A DNA stretch of 64,000 bases from Alphaproteobacteria bacterium (GTDB lineage Bacteria; Pseudomonadota; Alphaproteobacteria; GCA-2731375). The notes under the pieces are model-generated. The model was given only the letters and a program-made list of their open reading frames with translations, searched no databases and was not told the DNA's origin. Positions 4,919-42,750 of the stretch are shown here, piece after piece. How positions within the stretch are numbered: position 1 is the first letter of the stretch; each line of letters begins with the position of its first letter. Both the position numbers and the translations under genes were made by a program. The DNA lies in assembly GCA_016776605.1 (NCBI GenBank), contig JADHTB010000009.1:31453-95452 (forward strand). The letters are read 5' to 3'.

Positions 4919-5007
4919 ATCGGTTACCTCCCTGACACCACTGTAAACTGAACAGACAAGTGGGTGAAGACTGCTATCATGGCGGCAGATTTTCCGGGAG
5001 AGATAAA

Positions 5008-6411
5008 ATGACCCAATCAGCCCTTAATCCCACTTTTATGACCGTGCATGCCCTATCCGCCGCGATCAGCGACGGCAGCCTGACCTCCACCGGCGTCGTC
5101 GAACATTGCCTGCGGCAGATCGCAGCCCATGATGGCAAACTGCACGCGTTCGTCGAAGTCTATTGGGAGGAGGCCCGTCTGGCAGCCCAGGCGGCGGATC
5201 AGGCGATCCAGTCCGGCCATCGCCTTGGCCCCCTGCACGGTATTCCCATTGCCCTGAAAGACATCATCGATATGGAGGGGCGCATCACCACGGGCGGCTC
5301 CAAGGTATGGGAGAACCGCCGTTCCCCAACCACGGCAACGGTGGCCCAGCGGCTGATCGGGGCCGGCATGATTATCATTGGCAAGACCCATTCGGTGGAA
5401 TTCGCCATGGGCGGTTGGGGCACGAATACCCACATGGGCACGCCCTGGAACCCCTGGGATATGGAGACCCATCGCACGCCGGGCGGCTCCTCCGCCGGAT
5501 CGGGCGTCGCGGTCGCAGCCGGCATGGTGCCGGCGGCCATTGGTACGGATACCGGCGGGTCCGTGCGCCTGCCCGCGTCATTTTGCGGCCTGGCGGGGTT
5601 AAAAACCACGGTCGGCCGGATCAGCCTGCACGGCATCCTGCCGCTCTCCACCACCTTGGACACGCCCGGCCCCATGACCCGCTCGGTCGAGGATGCGGCC
5701 ATGATCTATGACGTCCTCCAGGGGCCTGACCCCCTGTGGCCGCCGACCCTGGCCCACGGCACCCACGATCCGTTTTCCAGCCTGCGCCGCGGGGTCAAGG
5801 GTTTGCGCCTGGCCGCCATTTCCGCGACCGAGCGCGCCGGCGTCGATGGTCCCACCCTGGCCGCCTTCGATGCGGCGCAAGCAACATTGCGGGACCTGGG
5901 GGCCACCGTCACGGAAGTCGAGATGCCCCGGCCTTTCACCGCTTTCGCCGCCATTGCCGGCCGGATCATCGGTGCCGAGGGCTATCGTTTCGTGGGCGCC
6001 TTGACGGACGATCCGAAGCTGCCCGTCGATCCCAACGTCAGGCCGCGCATTCAACTGGGCCGGGATATCAAGGCCCATGAATATCTCGATGCCCTGGCCG
6101 AACAGCAGGCGGCTAAGGCGGAATATGCCGAGGCTATGATGGATTTCGACGCCTTGTTGCTGCCCAGTACCGAGACGCCGGCCATTCCGTTATCCCAGGT
6201 GGATGAAGGCGGCACCCCGGCGCGCTTCACCCGTGCCGGCAACTGCCTTGAATTATGTGCCCTGTCCCTGCCCAACGGCCTATCACCCGAGGGCCTGCCC
6301 ACATCCCTGCAAATCGCCTGCATGGGGCATGAAGAGGCCATGGCCCTGCGCATCGGCTGGGCCTATGAACAAGCCACCGATTGGCATCGCCAGCACCCGG
6401 CGCTGGATTAG
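5008..6411 (+). CDS. Amidase (amidase-signature family)
   Basis: ATG at 5008 is preceded by GGGAGAGATAAA. Amidase signature 'GGSSAGSGVAVAAGMVPAAIGTDTGGSVRLPASFCGLAGLKTTVGRIS'. Confidence 0.8.
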   Translation: MTQSALNPTFMTVHALSAAISDGSLTSTGVVEHCLRQIAAHDGKLHAFVEVYWEEARLAAQAADQAIQSGHRLGPLHGIPIALKDIIDMEGRITTGGSKVWENRRSPTTATVAQRLIGAGMIIIGKTHSVEFAMGGWGTNTHMGTPWNPWDMETHRTPGGSSAGSGVAVAAGMVPAAIGTDTGGSVRLPASFCGLAGLKTTVGRISLHGILPLSTTLDTPGPMTRSVEDAAMIYDVLQGPDPLWPPTLAHGTHDPFSSLRRGVKGLRLAAISATERAGVDGPTLAAFDAAQATLRDLGATVTEVEMPRPFTAFAAIAGRIIGAEGYRFVGALTDDPKLPVDPNVRPRIQLGRDIKAHEYLDALAEQQAAKAEYAEAMMDFDALLLPSTETPAIPLSQVDEGGTPARFTRAGNCLELCALSLPNGLSPEGLPTSLQIACMGHEEAMALRIGWAYEQATDWHRQHPALD

Positions 6412-6497
6412 GATCACTTTTTGGTGAGGCGGTTGCAAAGCCCGGCACGCTCTGTTCCAATCCCAACAGCAAATTTATTTAGAGGGAGCTATTCAAC

Positions 6498-6977
6498 ATG
6501 ACAGCAAAATTGGCCTCTGGTGACAGCTTTCCCAATATGTCACTGGCTCTGGTCGGGGGCGGCAGCATCGAATTGCCCTCGGACCTGAAGACCAGCTATT
6601 CCGTCATCCTGTTTTATCGCGGCCACTGGTGACCCTACTGCCGCCGGCAGTTGGTCGGCATGGAAAACGAACTGGAAACCTTGAAAAGCCTGGATGTTTC
6701 CGTCATCGCGGCCAGCATTGATGACGAGGAAAAAGCAGCCGAGGTCGCGGCCGAGCTGTCTTTTCCCGTCGCCTATGGCGTGACGCGGGCACAGGCTGAC
6801 AGCATCGACGCCTGGTGGGAAGACAGGCGCAGTATTATACAGCCCAGCGAGTTCCTGCTGAATGCGGGGCATAAGGTCATCTTTTCCACCTACAGCTCCG
6901 GCCCCCTGGGCCGTATGAACCCACCCGATGTGGTGAAGATCATTCAGTTCCTGGAAAAACAGAAACAGAGTGGCTAG
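6498..6977 (+). CDS. Prx-like (AhpC/TSA-redoxin family) selenoprotein candidate; in-frame TGA at 6630-6632 read as selenocysteine
   Basis: ATG 6498 (RBS AGAGGGAG). Translation MTAKLASGDSFPNMSLALVGGGSIELPSDLKTSYSVILFYRGHW-[TGA]-PYCRRQLVGMENELETLKSLDV... stays in frame through the TGA into ORF 6651..6977 (153 nt = 51 codons). The TGA sits at the resolving position of the conserved redoxin 'W-C-P-x-C' motif. Confidence 0.7.
6638..6650 (+). other. SECIS-like stem-loop immediately 3' of the in-frame TGA (CUGCC-GCC-GGCAG)
   Basis: Perfect 5-6 bp inverted repeat ctgccg/cggcag beginning 6 nt after the TGA. Larger alternative pairings are possible (GCCG...CGGC). Confidence 0.3.
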
Positions 6978-30486: not shown

Positions 30487-32535
30487 CTAAGCCGCCGCGA
30501 CCTGCACACGGGTATCGTTGTAACAGGCGCCTTCGGACAGATCGGCCTTGGTGGTGGGGGCCAGGGCGGAGACGGTCTGGCCGTTGGTCGTGGTCCGCAT
30601 CCAGGCACCCTTGTATGACAGCAATACGCCCCTGGCCACGCTGTCGGTGATTTTCAAAGGCAGGAAGACTTCGCCAAGGCCGTTGAAGACGCGCACCTGT
30701 TGGCCGTCCGCAAGGCCACGGCTGCCCGCGTCATCGGGATGCATTTCCAGGGTCGGTGTGGGGTCGGACTTGCTCAGACCGCCGAACATGGAATTGGTTC
30801 GCCAATTTGACGACGGCGTCAACAAGGCAAAGGGATAGGTGCCGGCGGTATCCTCGTCTTCCGCCAAGGTTTGGAAACGGGGCAACGGGGCCGCGAAGTT
30901 TTCCTCCAGATAGGCTGATTTCAACTCTATCCTACCGCTTTTGGTGGTTGGTTTGTATTCATAGCCAATCCGCGGCCCAGGGGTGGCCATGGATAACACC
31001 GTCCCCGTCGGCAATTCGCTGGGCCGCACGCCGCCCAGACGAGGATCGTCGCCGTCAATGGCATCGTCTATCAGTTGCGCATCGCTGGCCTGGAAAATCG
31101 GATCGTTGAAGCCAAAACGCCGGGCCAGACGGCGGAAGATTTCCGTATTGGGCAAGGCCTCGCCGACCGGTTCGATGACCGGCGCGGCCCGTTGCAGATA
31201 TTGCTGACCATAGGCGCAGAATATATCGTCATGTTCGAAATGGCTGGCCGCCGGCAGCACCACATCAGCGTAGGCCGCCGAGTCCGTCAGGGCGATATCC
31301 ACCACCACGGTAAAGACATCTTCGCGGGCCAGGCCGCGCCGCATGGTGTTCTGATCGGGGTGCACCACCAACGGATTATGGTTGTAGATCACCAGCCCAC
31401 GGATCGGCGGGTCGATATCGTCATCGGCCAGATGTCGGCCCACATCGATGATGTTCAAGGTGCGCGTCCCCTCGGGGATCAAATCCGGGCGCTGCAAACG
31501 TTTCGGGGTCTTGGGGAATAGAGTGCCCGCGCCACCGATCAGACCGCCGGCGGGATGGCTAAACTTGCCGGTCAGGGCCGGCAGGGCAAAGATCGCACGC
31601 AGACCGGCGCCGCCGTTGCGGTTCCGCTCCAAACCGTTGCCCGAGGCGATCACCGCCGGCTCCGCCGCATGATACATTGCGGCCAGGGTTAGAATGTCCT
31701 CGGCCGGAACACCGGTGATCCCGGCGGCCCGTTCGATGCTGAATTGGCGCGCTTCGGCCATGAAGTCTTCGGCGCCCTCGACCGCATCCGCGATGAATGC
31801 GGCATCGAATGCGCCGCGCCTCTCCAATTCCGCCGCCAGGGCAAAGGCCAGCACCACGTCGGTACCGGGCCGGGGTGCCAGATGCAAATCCGCCTGCTCC
31901 GCCACCTTGATCCGCTTGGGATCCACCACCACCACCTTGCCGCCGCGGTCCCGGATACGCTGGATCACGGGCGCCAGGTGCAGGTTGGAAAAGGTGACAT
32001 TGTTGCCCCAGACCACGATCAACTGGGCGCTTTCCACGTCCTCCATCTGGGCCCCCGCGATGGAGCCAAAGGTGCCCAGCCAGGCCTCCGTCTTGATGCC
32101 GCCGCACAAGGGCCGGCGCGACAGGATCGAGGCGCCCATTTGATGGAAGAAGCGCAGATCCATGGAGCCCATGGCCAACAGACCGTGGGGGCCGGCGTAA
32201 TTCAACGGCAGAATGGTTTGCCGACCGTGTTTCGCAATGGCTTCCTGAAACCTGTCATGGATTAAATCCAGCGCCTCTTCCCACGAAATCGCCTCGAAAC
32301 GGCCCTCGCCCTTGGGGCCGACGCGCTTCAGGGGCCGGGTCAGGCGGTTGGCGCCATGGACAAATTCCGGGTAAAGCTTGGAAACCTTGCCGCAGATCGC
32401 GCCTTGGGTCAGCGGATTGACGTTGGAGCCGCGCACCTTGCTGATCTTGCCGTCTTCCACGGTGACGTCCAGGGAACAGGTATCGGGACAATCCAGGGGG
32501 CAGACACTCGCCATTTGCTGGGCCAAAAGAGACAC
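30487..32535 (-). CDS. Molybdopterin-dependent oxidoreductase (MopB superfamily, N-terminal 4Fe-4S)
   Basis: 682 aa. N-terminal 'CPLDCPDTCSL' Fe-S motif and MopB catalytic-domain collinearity. The reading frame is continuous, so it is a Cys-type enzyme and not Sec-containing. Confidence 0.75.
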   Translation of the reverse strand: MSLLAQQMASVCPLDCPDTCSLDVTVEDGKISKVRGSNVNPLTQGAICGKVSKLYPEFVHGANRLTRPLKRVGPKGEGRFEAISWEEALDLIHDRFQEAIAKHGRQTILPLNYAGPHGLLAMGSMDLRFFHQMGASILSRRPLCGGIKTEAWLGTFGSIAGAQMEDVESAQLIVVWGNNVTFSNLHLAPVIQRIRDRGGKVVVVDPKRIKVAEQADLHLAPRPGTDVVLAFALAAELERRGAFDAAFIADAVEGAEDFMAEARQFSIERAAGITGVPAEDILTLAAMYHAAEPAVIASGNGLERNRNGGAGLRAIFALPALTGKFSHPAGGLIGGAGTLFPKTPKRLQRPDLIPEGTRTLNIIDVGRHLADDDIDPPIRGLVIYNHNPLVVHPDQNTMRRGLAREDVFTVVVDIALTDSAAYADVVLPAASHFEHDDIFCAYGQQYLQRAAPVIEPVGEALPNTEIFRRLARRFGFNDPIFQASDAQLIDDAIDGDDPRLGGVRPSELPTGTVLSMATPGPRIGYEYKPTTKSGRIELKSAYLEENFAAPLPRFQTLAEDEDTAGTYPFALLTPSSNWRTNSMFGGLSKSDPTPTLEMHPDDAGSRGLADGQQVRVFNGLGEVFLPLKITDSVARGVLLSYKGAWMRTTTNGQTVSALAPTTKADLSEGACYNDTRVQVAAA

Positions 32536-32799
32536 TCCTTAATCGCATGCTGGATCGGAGGCTGACCATCTTCCAAAAGTGGCTGGAATAAAAGAGCCAT
32601 TTCAGACTATTTTATAGGGCCAATTTATGAGACTGCGGAGCAGCCGAAAATTGCGTCAGATTGAAGCAGCAGGCAGGATCGGCAAATTCGGGCTGTTTGA
32701 TCGCGGCGATTGGTGAAACAATTCCCCTGATGATACCGGATACCGATGCCGGATACCGGCGGCACGCACGGCGCCCCGCGCCGATAAAGGAGGCAGTCC

Positions 32800-33216
32800 A
32801 TGACGAAGAAAATCAGCCATATAGGCATTCTAGTGCACGACGCGGACGCCGCCGTCACGCACTGGACGGAAGCGTTCGGTTTCAAGAGGTTCGAGGACCG
32901 CAGGATCGAGGTTGAAGGTATCCGCAGCGTTTTCATTTCCGTCGGCGGAAGCTGGGACGAAATGGTCATCGAGATCATGGAGCCCTTGGACAAATCGAAC
33001 ATGGAGAACGCCTTGTCCCGGCGCCTGGCCAAGGTTGGCGAAGGCTTTTACCACATCTGCCTGGAAGTCGATGATGTGGAGGGCAGCGGCAAGGCGTTGC
33101 GCGACCGCGGCATGACCGTGTTGATGCGCGATCCGACCGAACCCGGCGCCTCGCCCCGATGGCTGGTCCACCCCAAGGACGCCAACGGCGTCATGGTTGA
33201 GGCCCTCAAGCGCTAG
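32800..33216 (+). CDS. VOC/glyoxalase-family protein (methylmalonyl-CoA epimerase-like)
   Basis: 138 aa. 'ISHIGILVHDADAAVTHW...FGF' and 'GFYHICLEVDDV' paired VOC modules. Confidence 0.65.
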   Translation: MTKKISHIGILVHDADAAVTHWTEAFGFKRFEDRRIEVEGIRSVFISVGGSWDEMVIEIMEPLDKSNMENALSRRLAKVGEGFYHICLEVDDVEGSGKALRDRGMTVLMRDPTEPGASPRWLVHPKDANGVMVEALKR

Positions 33217-33237
33217 AGCAGAGGCGGTGGCAGAAGC

Positions 33238-33258
33238 GGGGGCGGGGCAGCCCCGCCT
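33238..33258. terminator. GC-rich hairpin between convergent genes (GGCGGGG-cag-CCCCGCC)
   Basis: 7-bp perfect stem with a 3-nt loop, 20 nt after the VOC stop. No clear U-tract, so it may be a bidirectional or Rho-assisted terminator. Confidence 0.35.
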
Positions 33259-33991
33259 ACAACTTGGCATACAGCGCGAATAACCGTTCCCAATGACGCT
33301 CGGCGGCGTCTCTGTCGTAAACCTTGCGGTCCGGAAAGGCGAAGCCGTGATGCACGCCCGGTTGGATTTCGATCTCGCCCGGCGCGCCCGCCGCCTCGAA
33401 CAACCGGCGCAATTCGTCGACCATGTCGAGAGGTGCGAGGGCATCATGTTCGGCACACGAGATATAGATCTCGCCCTTGACCTGGGCAAAGGTCAGATGC
33501 GGGCTTTCCTCGGCGTCATTAACCAGCCAGGTGCCGTAAAACGAGGCGGCGGCCTTGACCCGGTCGGGATAGCGCGCGGCGGCGGCCAGGGCATAGGGGC
33601 CGCTCATGCAATAGCCGTGCGCACCCACCGGCCCCGCCTTGGCCATATCCTGGCCGTCCACATAGGCCAGCATGGCACCGACATCCTCCATCACCGGGGG
33701 AATGGTCATCTTGGTGCGGACGGCGCGCATGGCGGTGTGGTCATCGCTGCCCGCCTCCAGCACCGTCGGCCCATACATGGTGTCCCGGCCGGCCCGATAG
33801 TACAGATTGGGCAGCAGCACATAGTAACCCACCGTCGCCAGGCGCCGCGCCATGTCGCGCAGTTCCTCGCGGATGCCCGGCGCATCCATCAGCAGAAATA
33901 TCGCCGGATATGGCCCACCCCGTTCGGGATGGCAGACAAAGGTCTCCATCGCGCCGTCTTTGGTGGTGATATCCAATGTCGCTTCAATCAT
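33257..33991 (-). CDS. Dienelactone hydrolase family protein
   Basis: 244 aa. 'GYCMSGPYA' nucleophile elbow in a DLH-like alpha/beta fold. Confidence 0.75.
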   Translation of the reverse strand: MIEATLDITTKDGAMETFVCHPERGGPYPAIFLLMDAPGIREELRDMARRLATVGYYVLLPNLYYRAGRDTMYGPTVLEAGSDDHTAMRAVRTKMTIPPVMEDVGAMLAYVDGQDMAKAGPVGAHGYCMSGPYALAAAARYPDRVKAAASFYGTWLVNDAEESPHLTFAQVKGEIYISCAEHDALAPLDMVDELRRLFEAAGAPGEIEIQPGVHHGFAFPDRKVYDRDAAERHWERLFALYAKL

Positions 33992-34092
33992 TTTGCCGGC
34001 TCCCCATTTTTTTTATGCTGGCGTGACTATATGGTAAAACGGATTTTCAATGGCATACTATGACCCGACAATAAATTGGGAAGGGTACGACC

Positions 34093-35136
34093 ATGGCGCA
34101 TACCGATGACTGGCTGGCACTGACAACGGAAGCGACCCTGGAACCGGATTTGCCGATCTGCGATCCCCATCACCACCTTTGGGATGCGAGCATTGATCCC
34201 GCCGCGCAATTCCGCAACGATCAGGTGGAAAGCCGCTATCTGCTGGATGAATGGCTGGCCGATATTAACAGCGGCCATAATGTGGTCTCGACCATTTTCA
34301 TCGAATGCGGCTCCATGTACCGGGCCGATGGCCCCGCTGCCATGCGGCCGGTGGGCGAGACGGAATTCGTCAACGGCATCGCCGCCATGAGCGCCTCGGG
34401 CCTGTATGGCCCCGCCCGCGTTGCCGCCGGTATCGTCGGCTTGGCTAATCTGAATTTGGGCGCCGGCGTCAGGGAGGTGCTGGAGGCTCATATCACCCTG
34501 GGCGGCGGGCGCTTTCGCGGCATTCGCCATGCCGCCGCCTGGGACGCCAGCGATGAAATTCGCAATTCCCACACCAAACCGACCCCGGGCATGCTGGCGG
34601 ACCCCACCTTCCGTGAAGGCTTCGCCCAACTGGCGCCCCTGGAGATGACGTTCGAGGCCTGGTGCTATCACACCCAGATCCGGGAGATGACGGATCTGGC
34701 CCGGGCTTTCCCCGACACCACGATGATTTTGAACCATTTCGGCGGGCCCATCGGGATCGGTCCCTATACCGGCAAACGCGAGGAAATTCTGGCCCAGTGG
34801 CGCCTCGATATTGATGAACTGGCGAAATGCCCCAACGTGGTGGCGAAGCTGGGCGGCATTAATATGAAGGTCAATGGCTATGACTGGGATTTACAGGCCC
34901 AGCCCCCCGGCAGCGAGGCGCTGGCCGCCGCGACGCGGGTCTATTACGACCATTGCATGGACCGTTTCGGGGTGGAGCGGTGCATGTTCGAATCTAATTT
35001 CCCGGTGGACAAGCGGACCTGCAGCTACAACGTGCTGTGGAATACCTTCAAACGCATCGCGTCGGGTTGTTCGGCAGGGGAAAAAGCCTCTCTTTTCCAC
35101 GACACCGCCGCGCGGGTCTATCGGGTCAATGACTAA
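34093..35136 (+). CDS. Amidohydrolase-2 (ACMSD/TIM-barrel metal-dependent hydrolase) family protein
   Basis: 'CDPHHHLWD' HxH metal motif near the N-terminus. 347 aa. Confidence 0.7.
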   Translation: MAHTDDWLALTTEATLEPDLPICDPHHHLWDASIDPAAQFRNDQVESRYLLDEWLADINSGHNVVSTIFIECGSMYRADGPAAMRPVGETEFVNGIAAMSASGLYGPARVAAGIVGLANLNLGAGVREVLEAHITLGGGRFRGIRHAAAWDASDEIRNSHTKPTPGMLADPTFREGFAQLAPLEMTFEAWCYHTQIREMTDLARAFPDTTMILNHFGGPIGIGPYTGKREEILAQWRLDIDELAKCPNVVAKLGGINMKVNGYDWDLQAQPPGSEALAAATRVYYDHCMDRFGVERCMFESNFPVDKRTCSYNVLWNTFKRIASGCSAGEKASLFHDTAARVYRVND

Positions 35137-35154
35137 TCAGTATCGGATGAAAGC

Positions 35155-36051
35155 ATGACCGAGAAAATTGCGGTAATTGGCATGGGCCAGATGGGCTCCG
35201 CCATGGCCCGGCGGTTGAGCGAGTCCCAGCGGGACGTGATGGGTTACGACATCAACGAAACCGTGCGCCAAAACCTGGCGGCGCAGGGCGTGAATATGGC
35301 CGATAGTCTGGCCGCCGCCCTGGCCGGGCGCACCACCGTCCTAACCTCGCTGCCAGACCCGAAAGCCGTGCACGAGGCCTGGCTGGGGACCGGCGGCATC
35401 GCCGCCCTGGCCGAACCGGGCAGTTTGCTGGTGGAATTGAGCACCATCGATCCCGATACCATGAAAGCCGTGGGCGGTCAGGCGACAGCGCTGGGCCACG
35501 CGGTTCTGGACTGCCCGGTCAGCGGCAGCCCGAACGAGGCCGGCACCGGCAAGTTGGTATTATTGGTGGGTGGCGAGGCAGCGGTACTGGAACGCGCCGG
35601 GCCTTTGTTTGATATTCTGGGACAGACCTGGCAGCACACCGGTGCGGTCGGCACCGCCAAGGTGGTCAAAATCGTCAACAATATGATGTCCATGGGCAAC
35701 GTCCTGGTCGCCTCGGAGGCATTTGCCCTGGGCGTCGCCGCCGGCGTCGATCAGCAAAGGCTGTTCGAGGTGATCTCCGTCTCCGGCGGCCGCTCGCACC
35801 ATTTCACCAAACGTTTCCCCAACGCCCTGAAGGACGATTTCGCCCCTGGCTTCAAGATGGAACTGGGCGAAAAGGACCTCTCCCTGGGCATCGATCTGGG
35901 CCGCGCCATGAAAATGCCCACCCCCACCGCCTCCCTGGCCCGCGAGATGTACGCCCTGGCCCTGGCCGAAGGCTACAGGGGTCAGGATATCGTCGCGTTG
36001 ATGGACATGTACCGCCAATGGGCCAAGGGCCGCGGGACGTCAGAAGAATAA
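35155..36051 (+). CDS. NAD(P)-dependent 3-hydroxyisobutyrate/6-phosphogluconate dehydrogenase-like oxidoreductase
   Basis: 'KIAVIGMGQMGSAMARRL' Rossmann motif and 'VVKIVNNMMSMGNVLVASEA' of the HIBADH family. Confidence 0.8.
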   Translation: MTEKIAVIGMGQMGSAMARRLSESQRDVMGYDINETVRQNLAAQGVNMADSLAAALAGRTTVLTSLPDPKAVHEAWLGTGGIAALAEPGSLLVELSTIDPDTMKAVGGQATALGHAVLDCPVSGSPNEAGTGKLVLLVGGEAAVLERAGPLFDILGQTWQHTGAVGTAKVVKIVNNMMSMGNVLVASEAFALGVAAGVDQQRLFEVISVSGGRSHHFTKRFPNALKDDFAPGFKMELGEKDLSLGIDLGRAMKMPTPTASLAREMYALALAEGYRGQDIVALMDMYRQWAKGRGTSEE

Positions 36052-36084
36052 CGCCTGGGTCCATGGCGCCCCGTAAACAACAGG

Positions 36085-36456
36085 CTAATTCGCGGCGTAA
36101 AAGGCCAGTTTATTGCCGTCCAGGTCGCGTGCGTACGCAAAGGTCATGCCGCCGCCGCCCCTCGGGCCGACTTCGCCTTCATCGCGGCCGCCCAATGCCA
36201 ACGCCTTGGCATGAAGTTTCGCCACGGTTTCGGCATCGTCCACCATAAGAGCCACCATGGTGCCGTTGCCAGCGCTGGCGGGCTGGCCGTCAAAGGGCTT
36301 GATAACGCCAAGCATGGCGGCGCCCGCCTTGCTCGACCACAGCACCAGACGTTCGTTCGGGACAATTTTCTTCAGCCCCAGATCGGCAAACAGGGCATCG
36401 TAAAATGCCGTGGCTTTTTCGAGATCGTTGGTTCCAAGGGTGGTGTAGCCGATCAT
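36085..36456 (-). CDS. VOC/glyoxalase-family protein
   Basis: 123 aa. 'MIGYTTLGTNDLEKATAFYDALF' and 'MTFAYARDLDGNKLAF'. Confidence 0.65.
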   Translation of the reverse strand: MIGYTTLGTNDLEKATAFYDALFADLGLKKIVPNERLVLWSSKAGAAMLGVIKPFDGQPASAGNGTMVALMVDDAETVAKLHAKALALGGRDEGEVGPRGGGGMTFAYARDLDGNKLAFYAAN

Positions 36457-36543
36457 GGTTCAGGTATCCTTTGTGATTGAATGAGGCGATTTGCATTGGA
36501 ATATGACGAATAAATCCGCTCAGGTCTGGTTTTTTTGCTGCCG

Positions 36544-37065
36544 CTAAGCTTCCATCAGAATTGGCAGGGCCTGGGCATAGGCGGCCTCGGCCAGGGTCTT
36601 GATTTCAGGCAAGGTGCGGCTGCCGATGGGGTGCTCGACCATGATGAAGGGATAATCGGGCAGACCCAGCATGCGGGCAATGTTCCTGACCGTCACCTCG
36701 AACGGTTCGGTACAGACAACAACCGCACGCTTGCCTAGTTGTTCGAAGCTGATGCCGTCATGCAAACTGCACGTTGAGCAACTGCCTCAATCTCCCAGAC
36801 CGGTAATCAGGAAATCCACGTCATTTGCGGCCGCCTGCAATGTTTTGCCGGGTGCGGGCGCCGAGGCATTGCTCTTTGAGAAGATCGGTAGAATGATGCA
36901 GCCATGGCGCTGTTCGAACAGCGCCGCGGTCTCCCGCAGCATGTTGGTGGCGTTTAGCTTACCATTCTCCAACAGCCCGATGGTCTTGCCCTCCAGGTCC
37001 GGCAACGGCGCTGCGCGGGCATAATTCCGCTCCGGCCCCGTTACGGTAGGGTCATAGAGTTGCAT
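36544..37065 (-). CDS. UGSC-motif selenoprotein candidate (in-frame TGA at 36787-36789 read as Sec; motif D-U-G-S-C-S-T-C)
   Basis: Track ORFs 36787..37206 and 36544..36765 (minus) are in the same frame, separated only by TGA plus 7 codons (GSCSTCS). Start trimmed to ATG 37065 with a GGAGGAGAAAC RBS. ~173 aa with Sec at residue 93 in a UxxCxxC context. Confidence 0.65.
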
Positions 37066-37108
37066 GTTTCTCCTCCAATCATTGTTCTTGCTGCTGTCAT
37101 GGCAGCAA

Positions 37109-38188
37109 TTAGTCGCAATCAATGCAGACGCCAATGGGCTTCGACTGCATGATCGAGCTGCGGCCGCGACTCCAGGACGGGATAAAGCACGAGTGGCCCC
37201 CGGCATCGCCGCCGCCCATGACCACCAGAATATCGTCCGGGCTTAATCCCCGGTGCATCTTGCCGGCCTCCACCAGGGGGCTGCCGCCGCCCTCTTCGTG
37301 CTGTTTATCGTACTCGCGCTGCCTATATTTGCCGACCGACTGCATACCTTTGACCGTGCGGGTCGCTTGGCAGAAAAGGAATTCCCGCACTTGTTTCTTG
37401 CTCCAGCCGGTAGAGGCAATAACCCGGACATGCTCCGGCGACAGCACGACAACCGATTGGCCAAGCGTAATACAGCCATAATTGGCCATCGCGTCGGCAA
37501 TGGAGCCCAGGACCTGCTCCGGTGTGTTGCCGCCGTGGTTTTCCACATTGCAAAAACCACCACCCGCGAACACGGTCACGCTGCTGACGCCTGGGGGATA
37601 GTCCAGATCTTCGACCAGCAGGGGCCAGGGATTGCCCCGCGACCGCTCGGCGATACAAAAGCTGAACTTGCCGGGATTGCCCTGGGTCGATTTGTCGGAT
37701 ACGCCCGGGATCATCCGGAACACATTCATTAGGATCAGGCGCACGGCACGGCCGATGGTGGCGTTGGCGCGGTTACCGGGGCCGAACAGGTTCACATCGG
37801 CATTCATGCCGATATCGTCGATCACAGGTCCGCTGACCACCAGCAAGGGCGCCGAGCCCCCCGTACTGGCGGTCGAGCCATGAAAATTGAAGCCCGGTTC
37901 GTTCATCGCCTCGATCGCCGCAACGACGACGGGGAAGAATTCCGGCTTGCAGCCGGCCATGACCGCATTCACCGCCGCCGCGTGCGCTGTGCATTCAAAT
38001 CCCGTGGCCGGATGGGCCGCCAGCACGGTTTCCGGCGGCCGCCCCTCAAACAACAGCATCGCCTCGACGCGCTGCACGTCCGGCGGAACAACCGGCAAGC
38101 CGTCGGTCCAGCCTTGCTCGTAGCAATAGTCGATAGCGGCCAACAGATCGTCCTCGACCTCATGGATCCGGGCTGTCGCGTGCGCCAT
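37109..38188 (-). CDS. Conserved hypothetical protein (~360 aa), co-oriented 43 nt upstream of the UGSC selenoprotein gene
   Basis: Start trimmed to ATG 38188 (GGGAGAT RBS; 'MAHATARIHEVEDD...'), because the track ORF's N-terminus would overlap the divergent TauD-like gene. Good GC3 bias. No family recognised. Confidence 0.45.
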   Translation of the reverse strand: MAHATARIHEVEDDLLAAIDYCYEQGWTDGLPVVPPDVQRVEAMLLFEGRPPETVLAAHPATGFECTAHAAAVNAVMAGCKPEFFPVVVAAIEAMNEPGFNFHGSTASTGGSAPLLVVSGPVIDDIGMNADVNLFGPGNRANATIGRAVRLILMNVFRMIPGVSDKSTQGNPGKFSFCIAERSRGNPWPLLVEDLDYPPGVSSVTVFAGGGFCNVENHGGNTPEQVLGSIADAMANYGCITLGQSVVVLSPEHVRVIASTGWSKKQVREFLFCQATRTVKGMQSVGKYRQREYDKQHEEGGGSPLVEAGKMHRGLSPDDILVVMGGGDAGGHSCFIPSWSRGRSSIMQSKPIGVCIDCD

Positions 38189-38342
38189 GGCATATCTCCC
38201 AACGTTGCGTCCCTGGCAGGCAGAATACACCTTGGCCAAATTCAGTGGGCAAAATTTATAAAGGTGCAAATCCAGCGGCTTTGCCCGATCATATGGCAGC
38301 AATGGGTCGAAATCGACGTTGTATCCTCGGAAAGGAGTTCTC

Positions 38343-39164
38343 GTGAGCATAACCGTCACACCAATCACCGGCGCCCTGGGGGCGGAAATTGGTGGGGTGA
38401 ACGTCGCCGAAGACCTGGATGACGGCACCGTCGCGGCGATCCGCCAGGCCCTGCTGGATCATGGCGTGATCTTTTTCCGGGACCAGACCCTGGACGTGGA
38501 AAGCCACAAGGCGTTCACCCGGCGCTTTGGCGAATTGTTCGTGCATCCCAACTTTCAGTTCGGCCAGGAAAATCCAGAGATGGTGTATGTGCGCCGGGAA
38601 CCGGGTGACGCAAAGGTCGTGGGCGGGGATTGGCATGCGGACACCACCATGATGGCCACGCCGCCCATGGCTGCGATCCTGTACGCCATGGAAGTGCCCG
38701 CGGTAGGCGGTGATACCCTGTTCGCCAATCAATACCTGGCCTACGAGGCATTGTCCGATGGCATGAAGCGGCTATTGGCGCCGCTGCGCGCGGTGCATAA
38801 CGACAGCCGCGTCGCCGGGCCCCAGGCAGGACTTAACGCCCAGCGCGCCAGTCAGATACGCGAGGACGATGCCTGGCGAAAGACCGAAAGCATCCATCCG
38901 GTGGTGCGCAGCCACCCCGAAACCGGCCGGAAACATCTGTTCGTGAACCGGGTGTATGTGCACAATTTCGAGGGCATGACCGTGGCCGAGAGCCAGCCGC
39001 TGCTGGATTATCTATATGCGCACGCGGTCCGGCCCGAATTTACCTGCCGCTTTCGCTGGCGGCCCGGCTCCATCGCCTTTTGGGATAACCGCTGCGTCCT
39101 GCACCTGGCGGTGCATGACAACCACGACGACGCCCGCCACATGCGGCGCACCCAAATCGCCTAA
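38343..39164 (+). CDS. TauD/TfdA-family Fe(II)/2-oxoglutarate dioxygenase
   Basis: GTG 38343 after AAAGGAG. 'DWHADTTMM' HxD motif. Collinear with the paralogous gene at 27587. Confidence 0.75.
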   Translation: MSITVTPITGALGAEIGGVNVAEDLDDGTVAAIRQALLDHGVIFFRDQTLDVESHKAFTRRFGELFVHPNFQFGQENPEMVYVRREPGDAKVVGGDWHADTTMMATPPMAAILYAMEVPAVGGDTLFANQYLAYEALSDGMKRLLAPLRAVHNDSRVAGPQAGLNAQRASQIREDDAWRKTESIHPVVRSHPETGRKHLFVNRVYVHNFEGMTVAESQPLLDYLYAHAVRPEFTCRFRWRPGSIAFWDNRCVLHLAVHDNHDDARHMRRTQIA

Positions 39165-39275
39165 TATCCATAGGCGAAGTTTATTTTGGACGTATCTAGT
39201 GGGAGGGCTGGATCGTATCCTGTCCGGACAAAATCGGCCGACACCGTTTTAAACTTTTAAATCAGAAGACTGACC

Positions 39276-40112
39276 ATGGTGAAAGATATCAAACACATTC
39301 ACAGCTATTACTCGCCGAATGATTTGTATAACAAAATCATTGCGGGGCTTAACAAACTTGGCAAGGATTTGTCGCAGGTCACACTGGATGATCTTCAGCC
39401 CGTGGATGAATTTCATATCCGTGGCGATACCGCGACCAAAGAACTGATTAAACTTTCCGGTTTTACGCCAGACATGCATATCCTGGATGTGGGCTGCGGC
39501 ATCGGCGGTTCCACACGTCGTTTGTCACATGAAACAGGTTGTCGCGTAACCGGTATAGATTTGAGCGATGAATACATTGATACCGCGCAACGATTGACAC
39601 AATTGCTCAACATGCAGGAACGGGTAACGTTCCATGCGGCCAGTGCGCTGGCACTGCCGTTTGACGACAATGCCTTTGACGGCGTCTGGTCGCTGCAGAT
39701 GAACATGAATGTCGATGATAAGCTGTCCTGGCTAAAGGAAACCTATCGTGTTCTCAAACCCGGTGGGCGGGCGGTTTTGTATGAAGTATGCGGCAATAAA
39801 AATACGCCGCTGTATTTTCCGGTGCCATGGGCGCAGGACAGTTCCATGAGTTTTCTGGTGCCGCCGGAATCCTTCCGCGATGTCATAACATCCGCCGGTT
39901 TTGATATCACTGTCTGGAATGACAAGACCGGCCTTGCACGGCAGGCCTTTGCACAAGTGAAGGCGCCTGTGGGCGAGCTGAACCTGCCGGTACTGGGCGT
40001 CTATCTGCTGGTGGGTAACGATATCAGCACCAAGGCCTATAATCTGCATCGTAATCTTGATGAAGAACGCGTCAGCCTGATCGAGACCGTAGCGGTAAAA
40101 CCTGATTTTTAA
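39276..40112 (+). CDS. Class-I SAM-dependent methyltransferase
   Basis: 'ILDVGCGIGGSTRRL' motif I, plus post-I acidic and motif II regions. The gene body is markedly more AT-rich than its flanks. Confidence 0.75.
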   Translation: MVKDIKHIHSYYSPNDLYNKIIAGLNKLGKDLSQVTLDDLQPVDEFHIRGDTATKELIKLSGFTPDMHILDVGCGIGGSTRRLSHETGCRVTGIDLSDEYIDTAQRLTQLLNMQERVTFHAASALALPFDDNAFDGVWSLQMNMNVDDKLSWLKETYRVLKPGGRAVLYEVCGNKNTPLYFPVPWAQDSSMSFLVPPESFRDVITSAGFDITVWNDKTGLARQAFAQVKAPVGELNLPVLGVYLLVGNDISTKAYNLHRNLDEERVSLIETVAVKPDF

Positions 40113-40322
40113 AGCCGCTAGAGCGGTTCGTACCGCGTAATTGACCGGTCGCGATGTCTTGTCGTCCGGGTTCAAGTTTGCGACGATGCACGCACGAATG
40201 CGACGAGGTCGATTGGCGTGTCGCGCGAAGCAGCGTTAATTTGCGCGATACCGTTACCATGCGCACCGTGGCCACGAAATACACCACGCACCAAATACAC
40301 CACGCACTGGGGAGATCCGACT

Positions 40323-41072
40323 ATGCCGATATACGAAAACGGTCCCGTGAAGATTCATTACGAGGAGGCCGGCTCCGGCTTTCCGCTGCTGGTCATTCCC
40401 GGCGGCGGTCTAAATGCGACCATAGCCGGGCTCGCTAACCATGCCTTCAATCCGCTGGAGGAATTCAGCGACACCTATCGCGTCGTCGCGCTGGACATAC
40501 GCAACGCCAATGGCGGCAAGACGGAGGGCCCGCTCGAAATCGAACGGACCTGGGACGGCTTCGTCGACGACCAGCTCGGCCTGATGGACCATCTCGGCAT
40601 CGACCGGTTCATGGTGATGGGCTTCTGCATCGGCGGTCCGATGATCTGGAACCTGCTGAAACAAGCAGGCGACCGGGTCGTCGCCGCCACGCTGGTGCAC
40701 CCGAGCGGGTTTACCTCCAGCCATCCCGACATCTACTATAACAACAACATCAACGGCTGGGCGCCCGCGTTCATTAAGCGGCGGCCCGAGATCACCATGG
40801 AGATGGCCTCGGAATTCCTCAACAACATGTACACAAAGCGGGCGGATTTCGTGTTCACCGTCGACCGCGACTTCGTTCGGAATTGCCAGACACCGGTGCT
40901 GGTCCTGCCGGACGACATACCGGCGCACCCCTATGCGACGGCGATGGAGACGGCGCTGCTGGCGCCGAACGCGCAGGTCAGCCTCTATCCCTGGAAAGAG
41001 AACGACCGAAAGATCGCGCTCGCCTTGCGCCACATCCGCGGCTTCATGGCGACGAACGCCCCCGCAGTCTAG
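40323..41072 (+). CDS. Alpha/beta-fold hydrolase
   Basis: ATG 40323 after GGGGAGAT. 'LLVIPGGG', 'VMGFCIGG' nucleophile elbow (Cys/Ser-type). Confidence 0.65.
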   Translation: MPIYENGPVKIHYEEAGSGFPLLVIPGGGLNATIAGLANHAFNPLEEFSDTYRVVALDIRNANGGKTEGPLEIERTWDGFVDDQLGLMDHLGIDRFMVMGFCIGGPMIWNLLKQAGDRVVAATLVHPSGFTSSHPDIYYNNNINGWAPAFIKRRPEITMEMASEFLNNMYTKRADFVFTVDRDFVRNCQTPVLVLPDDIPAHPYATAMETALLAPNAQVSLYPWKENDRKIALALRHIRGFMATNAPAV

Positions 41073-41866
41073 AGCAATTCGTCCAGAAACGCCCGCAACG
41101 TCGCGCTGCATTCGCCGGCGTGGGAGAACGGCAGTCCATGGCGGGCATGGGGGAAAATCCGCAGCCGCGCATTGGGCAGCAGCGCATGCAGATCCGCCAT
41201 GATGGGCACCGGGATGAACGGAGAGGAATCCGGGTGCATCAGCAGAGTCGGCAGCACAACGTCAGGTAATTGTTGGCTCTGGTCCGTACCCACGAGTGTT
41301 TTCAACAGAGCCAGTACGGTGGCCGGGTCGGCGCTGGCCTGTTGCGCGCGGTACCAGGCCGATACCGGTTCCGCCAGGGCGCCGTCGAAAAACCGATGGG
41401 TCATCATGCGGTCGGACCAGGCGGCCATGCCCTCGCCCTCGATCAACTCGTGCCAGAAATCCAGGTTCTGGATTGTGCCGCCCATATGGGCGCCGTTGCT
41501 GACGGTCAGGCTCAACAGGCGGCCGGGATGTTCGATCGCGGTTTGCAGGGCCACGGTGCCGCCGACGGATTCTCCCACCAAATGAAACCTGGCGCAATCA
41601 ATCCTGTCCGCCAGGGCGATGACATCGCTCACCATGGCCTGGATGGTGATAGCGCCATCGCCCGGCTGAGACTGCCCATGGCCGGGCAGATCAAACGCGG
41701 CCAGGCGATAACGGTCCAGCAAGGCGGGCATCCAGCCCTGCCAACAGCGCCAGTTGGCGCCGACGCCGTGATGGAAAATGATCGTCTCCGGCGCCTCGAC
41801 CCACGGCGCCGTCTGATCGATAATTTCGTAGTGCAGGCGATGTGCGCCGGTATTCAGGTCTGGCAT
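41069..41866 (-). CDS. Alpha/beta-fold hydrolase
   Basis: 'IIFHHGVGAN', 'LVGESVGG' GxSxG elbow. Its stop overlaps the stop of the convergent hydrolase gene by 4 nt at a CTAG. Confidence 0.7.
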   Translation of the reverse strand: MPDLNTGAHRLHYEIIDQTAPWVEAPETIIFHHGVGANWRCWQGWMPALLDRYRLAAFDLPGHGQSQPGDGAITIQAMVSDVIALADRIDCARFHLVGESVGGTVALQTAIEHPGRLLSLTVSNGAHMGGTIQNLDFWHELIEGEGMAAWSDRMMTHRFFDGALAEPVSAWYRAQQASADPATVLALLKTLVGTDQSQQLPDVVLPTLLMHPDSSPFIPVPIMADLHALLPNARLRIFPHARHGLPFSHAGECSATLRAFLDELL

Positions 41867-41868
41867 TG

Positions 41869-42750
41869 TTAGGCGTCTCCGTCGGTTTCCATGGGCAGGC
41901 TATGATCGTTGGCCCATTCCGATAGGGAATTGTCGTAAATACCCACATCGTCATGGCCCAGCAGGACCAGAGCGAAGGCATCCGCCGTGGCCGCGATACC
42001 GCCGCCGCAATAGGTCAGCACTTTTTGCTCCATGCCGATCCTGGCCTCGGCGAACTTGCCGCGCAGGGCGGCTGCATCCAGAAAGGTATTGCTCTCGCGG
42101 TCCACTAAATCCAGTCCCGGCAGACAGACACTGCCCGCAATCCGGCCCGGCCGGCCATAATGGGTTTTTGAGGTGCCCGCGTGCTGGGCCTGGGTCAGGG
42201 CATTGACCACCACGGCGCCCTCGTCAGCCAGCGCGTCCAGCACCGCGTCCCTTGCCACGATGCGGCCGGGCTGGGCCCGGGCGGTAAAAGAGGCGGCGGC
42301 GTACTGGCAGGCAGCCGTATTAGTGGGGCGCCCCTCGGCCTGCCATTTTTGCATGCCGCCATTCAGGACGGCGGCATTTTCGAAGCCAAAGGCGTACAGC
42401 ATCCACCAGATGCGCGTGGCCCACCACATGGTCCCGCCGCTGTACAGCACGATGCGGAAATCATCACCCAGGCCTTTTGCGCCCACGGCGGCGGCAAAAG
42501 CCTCCGCGCCGGGGGTAGTGAAGCGAAAGGCGCCGGCGGGATCGGACAATTCACCCTGCAGGTCCAAATAGCCGGCGCCGGGAATATGGCCGGCCTGGTA
42601 ATCCGCCAGACCGCTTTCAACAGTGAAAACCTTGTCCGGATCGGGCCTTAAATGGGTTGTGCAATCGAAAATCCGCACCTTCGGATCATCCAGATGATCC
42701 GCCAGCCAGTCCGTTTCCACCAAAATTTCCGGTCGCGCGTAGTCGTTCAT
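41869..42750 (-). CDS. Two-domain rhodanese sulfurtransferase (thiosulfate/3-mercaptopyruvate type)
   Basis: 293 aa with tandem rhodanese domains. Catalytic Cys loop 'TYCGGGIAA'. Confidence 0.75.
   Translation of the reverse strand: MNDYARPEILVETDWLADHLDDPKVRIFDCTTHLRPDPDKVFTVESGLADYQAGHIPGAGYLDLQGELSDPAGAFRFTTPGAEAFAAAVGAKGLGDDFRIVLYSGGTMWWATRIWWMLYAFGFENAAVLNGGMQKWQAEGRPTNTAACQYAAASFTARAQPGRIVARDAVLDALADEGAVVVNALTQAQHAGTSKTHYGRPGRIAGSVCLPGLDLVDRESNTFLDAAALRGKFAEARIGMEQKVLTYCGGGIAATADAFALVLLGHDDVGIYDNSLSEWANDHSLPMETDGDA

Follow-up and report, generated by a model that had tools for sequence, protein, structure and literature searches.

A UGSC-family selenoprotein gene with an in-frame TGA and its conserved partner gene in an alphaproteobacterial contig

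The stretch of DNA analyzed in this study, 64,000 nucleotides of contig JADHTB010000009.1 from an Alphaproteobacteria bacterium (hereafter the window), carries on its minus strand a gene of the UGSC selenoprotein family that is divided into two open reading frames (ORFs) by an in-frame TGA. Comparison with related genes shows that this UGA, at codon 93, is to be read as selenocysteine (Sec). The gene stands directly behind a gene for a 359-aa protein, here called the partner, and the two constitute a conserved module that occurs either as two genes or as one fused gene. We are confident, short of certainty, in the overall model of a two-gene operon in which Sec recoding would provide UGSC as a redox or nucleophilic subunit acting together with the partner.

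The UGSC family (Zhang and Gladyshev 2007/2008) is a major selenoprotein family of aquatic environments with unknown function (PMC2398784, PMC1976440, PMC13188914). The first reports of the UGSC-containing protein came from Hyphomonas neptunium and ocean metagenomes (PMC1976440), and a 2026 review still counts it as uncharacterised (PMC13188914). The window gene is a new member of this already catalogued family, for which annotation models exist, and the surprise is therefore modest. What remains of interest is the partner family, which is unexplored, and the prediction that an abundant but functionally uncharacterised selenoprotein has a non-thioredoxin fold.

Decoding of the UGA at codon 93

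The UGSC gene occupies 36544..37065 of the minus strand, with 173 codons followed by a TAG stop (36546-36544) and Sec at codon 93. Two minus-strand ORFs, 36787..37206 and 36544..36765, share one frame and are parted by a lone TGA (36789-36787). Read on the sense strand, the gene runs ATG (37065) ... GAT TGA GGC AGT TGC TCA ACG TGC AGT ... TAG, and its translation across the TGA is ...DFLITGLGD-*-GSCSTCSLHDGISFEQ.... The TGA (36787..36789, minus strand), taken as U93, lies in the motif G-x-G-D-U-G-S-C-S and is present in 27 of 27 sequences. The start was placed at 37065, not at 37206, because the N-terminus MQLYDPT begins the protein at all 26 homologous loci. A Shine-Dalgarno sequence, GGAGGAG, is read directly from the sequence at 37070..37076 on the same strand, 4 nt 5' of this ATG. 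An earlier note on this DNA, made from the letters alone, had proposed the same geometry (same-frame ORFs separated by one TGA, ATG at 37065, and a 173-aa product with Sec at residue 93) together with a Shine-Dalgarno sequence for this start; all of its coordinates are correct, and the ribosome-binding site is where it was expected.

Family models were searched and scored with U replaced by C. Pfam PF24696 (UGSC) matched with 153.3 bits (E=9e-45; cutoff 25 bits), aligning residues 3-170 to positions 2-170 of the 172 in the model. The NCBIfam model NF041046, 'UGSC family (seleno)protein', gave 119.5 bits (E=1e-34), which is 5.5 bits short of its equivalog cutoff of 125; a Cys-type fusion protein, P0315, likewise stays under this cutoff with 119.8 bits. 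Among 42 sequences, G89, G91, D92, G94, S95, C96 and S97 are invariant, and column 93 holds C or U. The window protein thus resembles the UGSC family in its full-length Pfam match, in the invariant G-D-U-G-S-C and in a size of about 173-185 aa. Nothing essential differs, the extra Cys at +6 being a trait of its clade. Within the family, the members from aquatic Proteobacteria are mostly Sec forms, and those from Actinobacteria mostly Cys forms.

Homologues were scanned with one genome per species, yielding 26 loci from marine Alphaproteobacteria and Rhodospirillaceae metagenome-assembled genomes (MAGs). Over the N-terminal half, they are 70-91% identical to the window protein. In every one of them codon 93 is TGA, and the frame is conserved from there to a stop near codon 173, which is far beyond chance. 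The TGA is also kept in five further loci of metagenomes and Burkholderiaceae MAGs, which comprise three further distinct sequences. In about ten database proteins, truncation by gene callers is evident from an end exactly at ...GLGD. Two others, P0001 and P0002, show W at the Sec site, where the TGA was called as Trp; the TGA itself was confirmed in the DNA. Actinobacterial homologues, with 31-36% identity and the NCBI name 'UGSC family (seleno)protein', read GVGD-C-GSCS and place Cys at the TGA column. The idea of the earlier note that a UGSC-family selenoprotein had been split by ORF calling is accordingly upheld by the full-length Pfam match, by the Cys found at the TGA column and by the conserved RNA element described below.

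The TGA could also be a true stop, a pseudogene lesion, or an error of sequencing or assembly, with the halves being separate or dead ORFs. This agrees with the splitting of the gene by standard ORF calling, with the end of most public gene calls at ...GLGD, and with other genes in the window that end in TGA. However, the TGA and the frame downstream of it are under purifying selection in independent assemblies of 26 species, which also makes a sequencing artefact unlikely. Uninterrupted Cys-type homologues exist, the TGA would cut a single compact domain midway (after strand 3 and before helix 3 in the structural model), and a constrained RNA hairpin follows 3' of it. We regard a genuine stop or an error as extremely improbable, and give the same slight weight to a reading of TGA as Trp or Gly by a variant code or general readthrough. 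The latter would fit the entries P0001 and P0002, translated with W at this site, and the relative rarity of TGA stops in the window, where about 13 of the 59 greedily chosen ORFs end in TGA at a GC content of 61%. Such a share is low for a proteobacterial sequence of this composition. Nevertheless, several window genes end in TGA, and intact genes lack it internally. In-frame TGA was found in just two genes, both times at the Cys-equivalent UxxC site of a known selenoprotein family. Moreover, the homologues have Cys, not Trp or Gly, at the site, and the local RNA structure is conserved. With TGA closing several genes and missing from the interior of the others checked, a variant genetic code was rejected. 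Codon 93 can be read as Sec only through a specific recoding, since TGA otherwise serves as an ordinary stop in this DNA.

The other of these two genes lies about 30 kb away, at 6498..6977 on the plus strand. Its TGA (6630-6632) stands in the context ...FYRGHW-U-PYC... (UxxC), and the ORF caller splits it into 6498-6632 and 6651-6977. The product is peroxiredoxin-like and matches Pfam AhpC-TSA with E=7e-19, so that the second recoded gene pointed out in the earlier note is real. A hairpin of 6 bp with a 3-nt loop (CUGCCG-CCG-GCAGUU region) is found about 7 nt after the UGA. This gene shares with UGSC the organism, the UxxC motif and a Sec-UGA followed by a hairpin, but it belongs to an unrelated family with a thioredoxin-type fold and known peroxidase-type chemistry. 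A full Sec-insertion system in the organism can reasonably be inferred from the two recoded genes. A tRNA search of the 64-kb window returned tRNA-Thr only, and no tRNA-Sec. As a separate observation, none of the 15 Pfam-checked genes around the UGSC locus (30487-42750) ends in TGA.

A selenocysteine insertion sequence within the coding region

An apical hairpin, CGUGCA-GUU-UGCAUG (36759..36773, minus strand), begins 13 nt 3' of the UGA and is conserved across the loci. The earlier note had placed it about 13 nt downstream, and its position is exact (36773-36759). Synonymous-site entropy was measured per conserved degenerate codon in 27 sequences and amounts to 0.15 bit in codons 98-105 against 1.10 elsewhere (Mann-Whitney p=2.8e-6). 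No other run of eight codons in the gene scores as low as these (ACG UGC AGU UUG CAU GAC GGC AUC, 36774-36751). Both Ser100 and Leu101, which are six-fold degenerate, use a single codon each in 27 of 27 sequences; by comparison, Ser97 uses four codons and Leu110 five. Only the second pair of the hairpin varies. It is G.U in most loci, A-U in L026, L029 and L030, and G-C in L034, and is always a standard pair. On this comparison of coding sequences, an RNA constraint is overlaid on the protein code at codons 98-105. Because their near-frozen synonymous sites coincide with the hairpin, the latter is taken as the selenocysteine insertion sequence (SECIS).

An extended stem with the UGA in its 5' arm and a predicted lower helix was obtained at 36743..36790 (minus strand) by minimum free energy folding. 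In this folding, of a kind that the earlier note had suggested as a check for SECIS features, the 58-nt stretch reaches -18.9 kcal/mol with z=-2.2. On the alignment, 97.6% of the cells of the extended stem pair, and the changes are one-sided, with a few breaks and no compensatory doubles; a shuffle control was uninformative. Because the changes are one-sided and compensatory doubles are missing, the lower stem is weakly supported and remains tentative.

The window element is similar to bacterial SECIS elements of the E. coli fdhF/fdnG type, as in the bSECIS model of Zhang and Gladyshev, in being a stem-loop within the coding sequence directly 3' of the UGA and in having G at the first loop position. 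It differs from them in its loop of 3 nt (GUU, which would widen to 5 nt on opening of the closing A-U pair) and in showing no evident bulged U. In fdhF, the apical hairpin lies about 11 nt after the UGA, compared to 13 nt in the window. A search against Rfam gave no match to a SECIS family.

The partner gene and its association with UGSC

The gene encoding the partner is located at 37109..38188 on the minus strand, 43 nt upstream of UGSC, and its 359-aa product starts with MAHATARIH. A mechanical ORF of 439 aa (37109-38428) is over-extended and overlaps a divergent TauD/TfdA dioxygenase gene (38319-39164, plus strand). The start was set at 38188 because homology places it there, and the overlap with TauD is then gone. 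No terminator-like site was found on the minus strand between the partner and UGSC. The partner is 100% identical to P0020, a MAG 'hypothetical protein', and identity among many MAGs is 73-92%. Neither the single sequence nor a profile of 46 members gave any match in Pfam, NCBIfam or PDB sequences. Even so, the family is large, with at least 7,979 database matches and, in a separate count, 5,319 clusters at 50% identity. GWTDGLPVVPP (with D29 and P32), MAGC (with A78 and G79) and R147 are conserved family-wide, and Cys178 and Glu181 in the motif CIAE are nearly invariant. An AlphaFold2 (AF2) model of the partner was poor, with a predicted local distance difference test (pLDDT) score of 59 from a shallow alignment, and a fold search with it was uninformative.

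The partner is found directly upstream of UGSC in 25 of the 26 loci, while the other neighbours vary. The sole locus without it in this position is L017 (OZ253490.1, about 5000-6600), which comes from a complete chromosome. In Georgenia, Microbacterium and Lipingzhangella, a partner homologue (37-39% identity, E~1e-58) is encoded directly downstream of a Cys-type UGSC. The order of the two genes is thus reversed in Actinobacteria compared to the proteobacterial loci, with the adjacency kept. Fusion proteins of UGSC and the partner, about 540-590 aa in length, were also found: seven of eight representatives of about 550 aa have UGSC at the N-terminus and the partner domain at the C-terminus. 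Many representatives of 410-450 aa open with the post-Sec half of UGSC and are therefore Sec-containing fusions cut at the TGA. The uncharacterised domain that is joined to UGSC here, or encoded beside it, probably corresponds to 'Unknown_1', the fusion partner given in the 2008 paper (PMC2398784).

The actinobacterial loci comprise a three-gene unit of Cys-type UGSC, partner and short-chain dehydrogenase (L027 6001-8740, L028 6001-8480, L035 7001-9494), and the Burkholderiaceae loci have the partner first, then UGSC (Sec) and a dehydrogenase. The actinobacterial short-chain dehydrogenases are orthologous to one another with 49-64% identity. The idea that a short-chain dehydrogenase is a third component throughout was rejected, since the orthology is confined to Actinobacteria and the gene is absent from the window and from the alphaproteobacterial loci.

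Two side observations concern Burkholderiaceae. The hairpin sequence of their UGSC genes (L032 3115-3636 and L033 1508-2029) is identical to the alphaproteobacterial one. Their partner protein P0103 is 76% identical to that of the window, which is unusually high across classes. Such conservation could come from horizontal transfer or from very strong constraint.

Predicted fold and proposed role of UGSC

The structural model of UGSC was built with AF2 on P0001, which is 65% identical to the window protein and has W at the Sec site. With a pLDDT of 92.4, it displays five beta-alpha units in a flavodoxin-like arrangement, and a test for membership in the thioredoxin fold placed it outside that fold. 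The residue at the Sec position is located just before helix 94-109, at the N-terminal end of helix 3, and the invariant C96 follows one turn on. This predicted fold differs from the literature, where a thioredoxin-like fold was considered likely.

We propose that the two genes are transcribed as a minus-strand operon, with the partner (38188-37109) first and the 173-aa UGSC (37065-36544) second. On the comparative evidence, the UGA at codon 93 is decoded as Sec under the direction of the coding-region SECIS beginning 13 nt downstream. U93 and C96 at the helix N-terminus may then act as a selenenylsulfide redox pair (UxxC), or as a nucleophile with its resolving residue. UGSC would be one subunit of a two-part enzyme, with a redox or nucleophilic task, and the partner with Cys178 and Glu181 would be the other part. 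A bolder version is somewhat less than an even bet, namely that UGSC and the partner represent a widespread two-component or fused selenoenzyme of an undescribed catalytic class. Here, a selenenylsulfide on a flavodoxin-like scaffold might pass electrons or a covalent intermediate to Cys178/Glu181 of the partner in small-molecule catabolism.

The UxxC motif has suggested other roles. UGSC might be a free-standing thioredoxin-like thiol/selenol oxidoreductase, for instance a general antioxidant enzyme or a disulfide reductase, to which its neighbour is linked by the operon only and not as a functional partner. A thioredoxin-like fold and a redox role were suggested for UGSC in the 2008 Global Ocean Sampling (GOS) paper (PMC2398784). 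UxxC indeed resembles the CxxC of thioredoxin, and one locus has no adjacent partner. Considering the flavodoxin-like model, the 25 loci with an adjacent partner and the fusion proteins, we find a free-standing enzyme unlikely. A much smaller chance still, only slightly above that given to a true stop, falls to UGSC as a substrate-binding selenoprotein of a Stickland-type reductase similar to GrdB or PrdB, as the U-x-x-C-x-x-C of this clade might indicate. GrdB carries UxxCxxC. PrdB is given as UxxC in the GOS table (PMC2398784), and a Sec in a UxxC(xxC)-type motif is thus common to UGSC and these proteins.

However, only UxxC is conserved throughout the UGSC family. Cys-type homologues read GDCGSCSASA and fusion proteins GDCGSCTSW, both without the Cys at +6, which is confined to this proteobacterial clade; the view of the earlier note that UxxCxxC defines the family does not hold. 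Because the UGC codon of this third Cys is part of the 5' arm of the SECIS, selection on the RNA, and not a function in the protein, may be what preserves the residue. The resemblance to GrdB fared no better. No match to GRDB (PF07355) was obtained even at E<=10 with the window protein, a Cys homologue or a fusion protein. PDB sequence searches, run with the single UGSC sequence and also as a profile, brought up no relevant entry, and fold searches with the UGSC model turned up no superposition on PrdB or GrdB. There are also no grd or prd genes in the neighbourhood in the window. Kinship to GrdB/PrdB was rejected, as Pfam at E<=10 returned PF24696 alone and the PDB sequence searches were empty. 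UGSC is unlike these proteins in its lack of detectable sequence similarity and its different size, and in that the third Cys is not a trait of its family. GrdB and PrdB are subunits of multi-protein reductases and in this respect offer a possible analogy for the action of UGSC with its partner.

For annotation, the two ORF fragments in the window should be merged into one Sec gene, and the same applies to dozens of related MAG loci. The conserved SECIS, the close link to a large partner family without a model in the searched libraries, the fusions and the confident non-thioredoxin fold model may serve as handles for a first biochemical study of the UGSC-partner pair.

Other neighbours of UGSC and the partner in the window encode an amidohydrolase-2, a 3-hydroxyisobutyrate-dehydrogenase-like protein, a glyoxalase and TauD. 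In Actinobacteria, a dehydrogenase, a CoA transferase, an amidohydrolase-2 and LigAB are found. The catabolic character of these neighbours suggests a redox conversion of a small molecule, not a general defence against oxidants; they are too variable to name a substrate. A plasmid search of the region gave short matches only, to unrelated TauD genes. On a low-coverage metagenome contig (L031 1-624), the C-terminal region of a PurM-like (AIR-synthase-related) protein is encoded upstream of a Sec-type UGSC gene. The called N-terminus of that UGSC looks aberrant; this could be a chimeric contig or a divergent variant of the gene.
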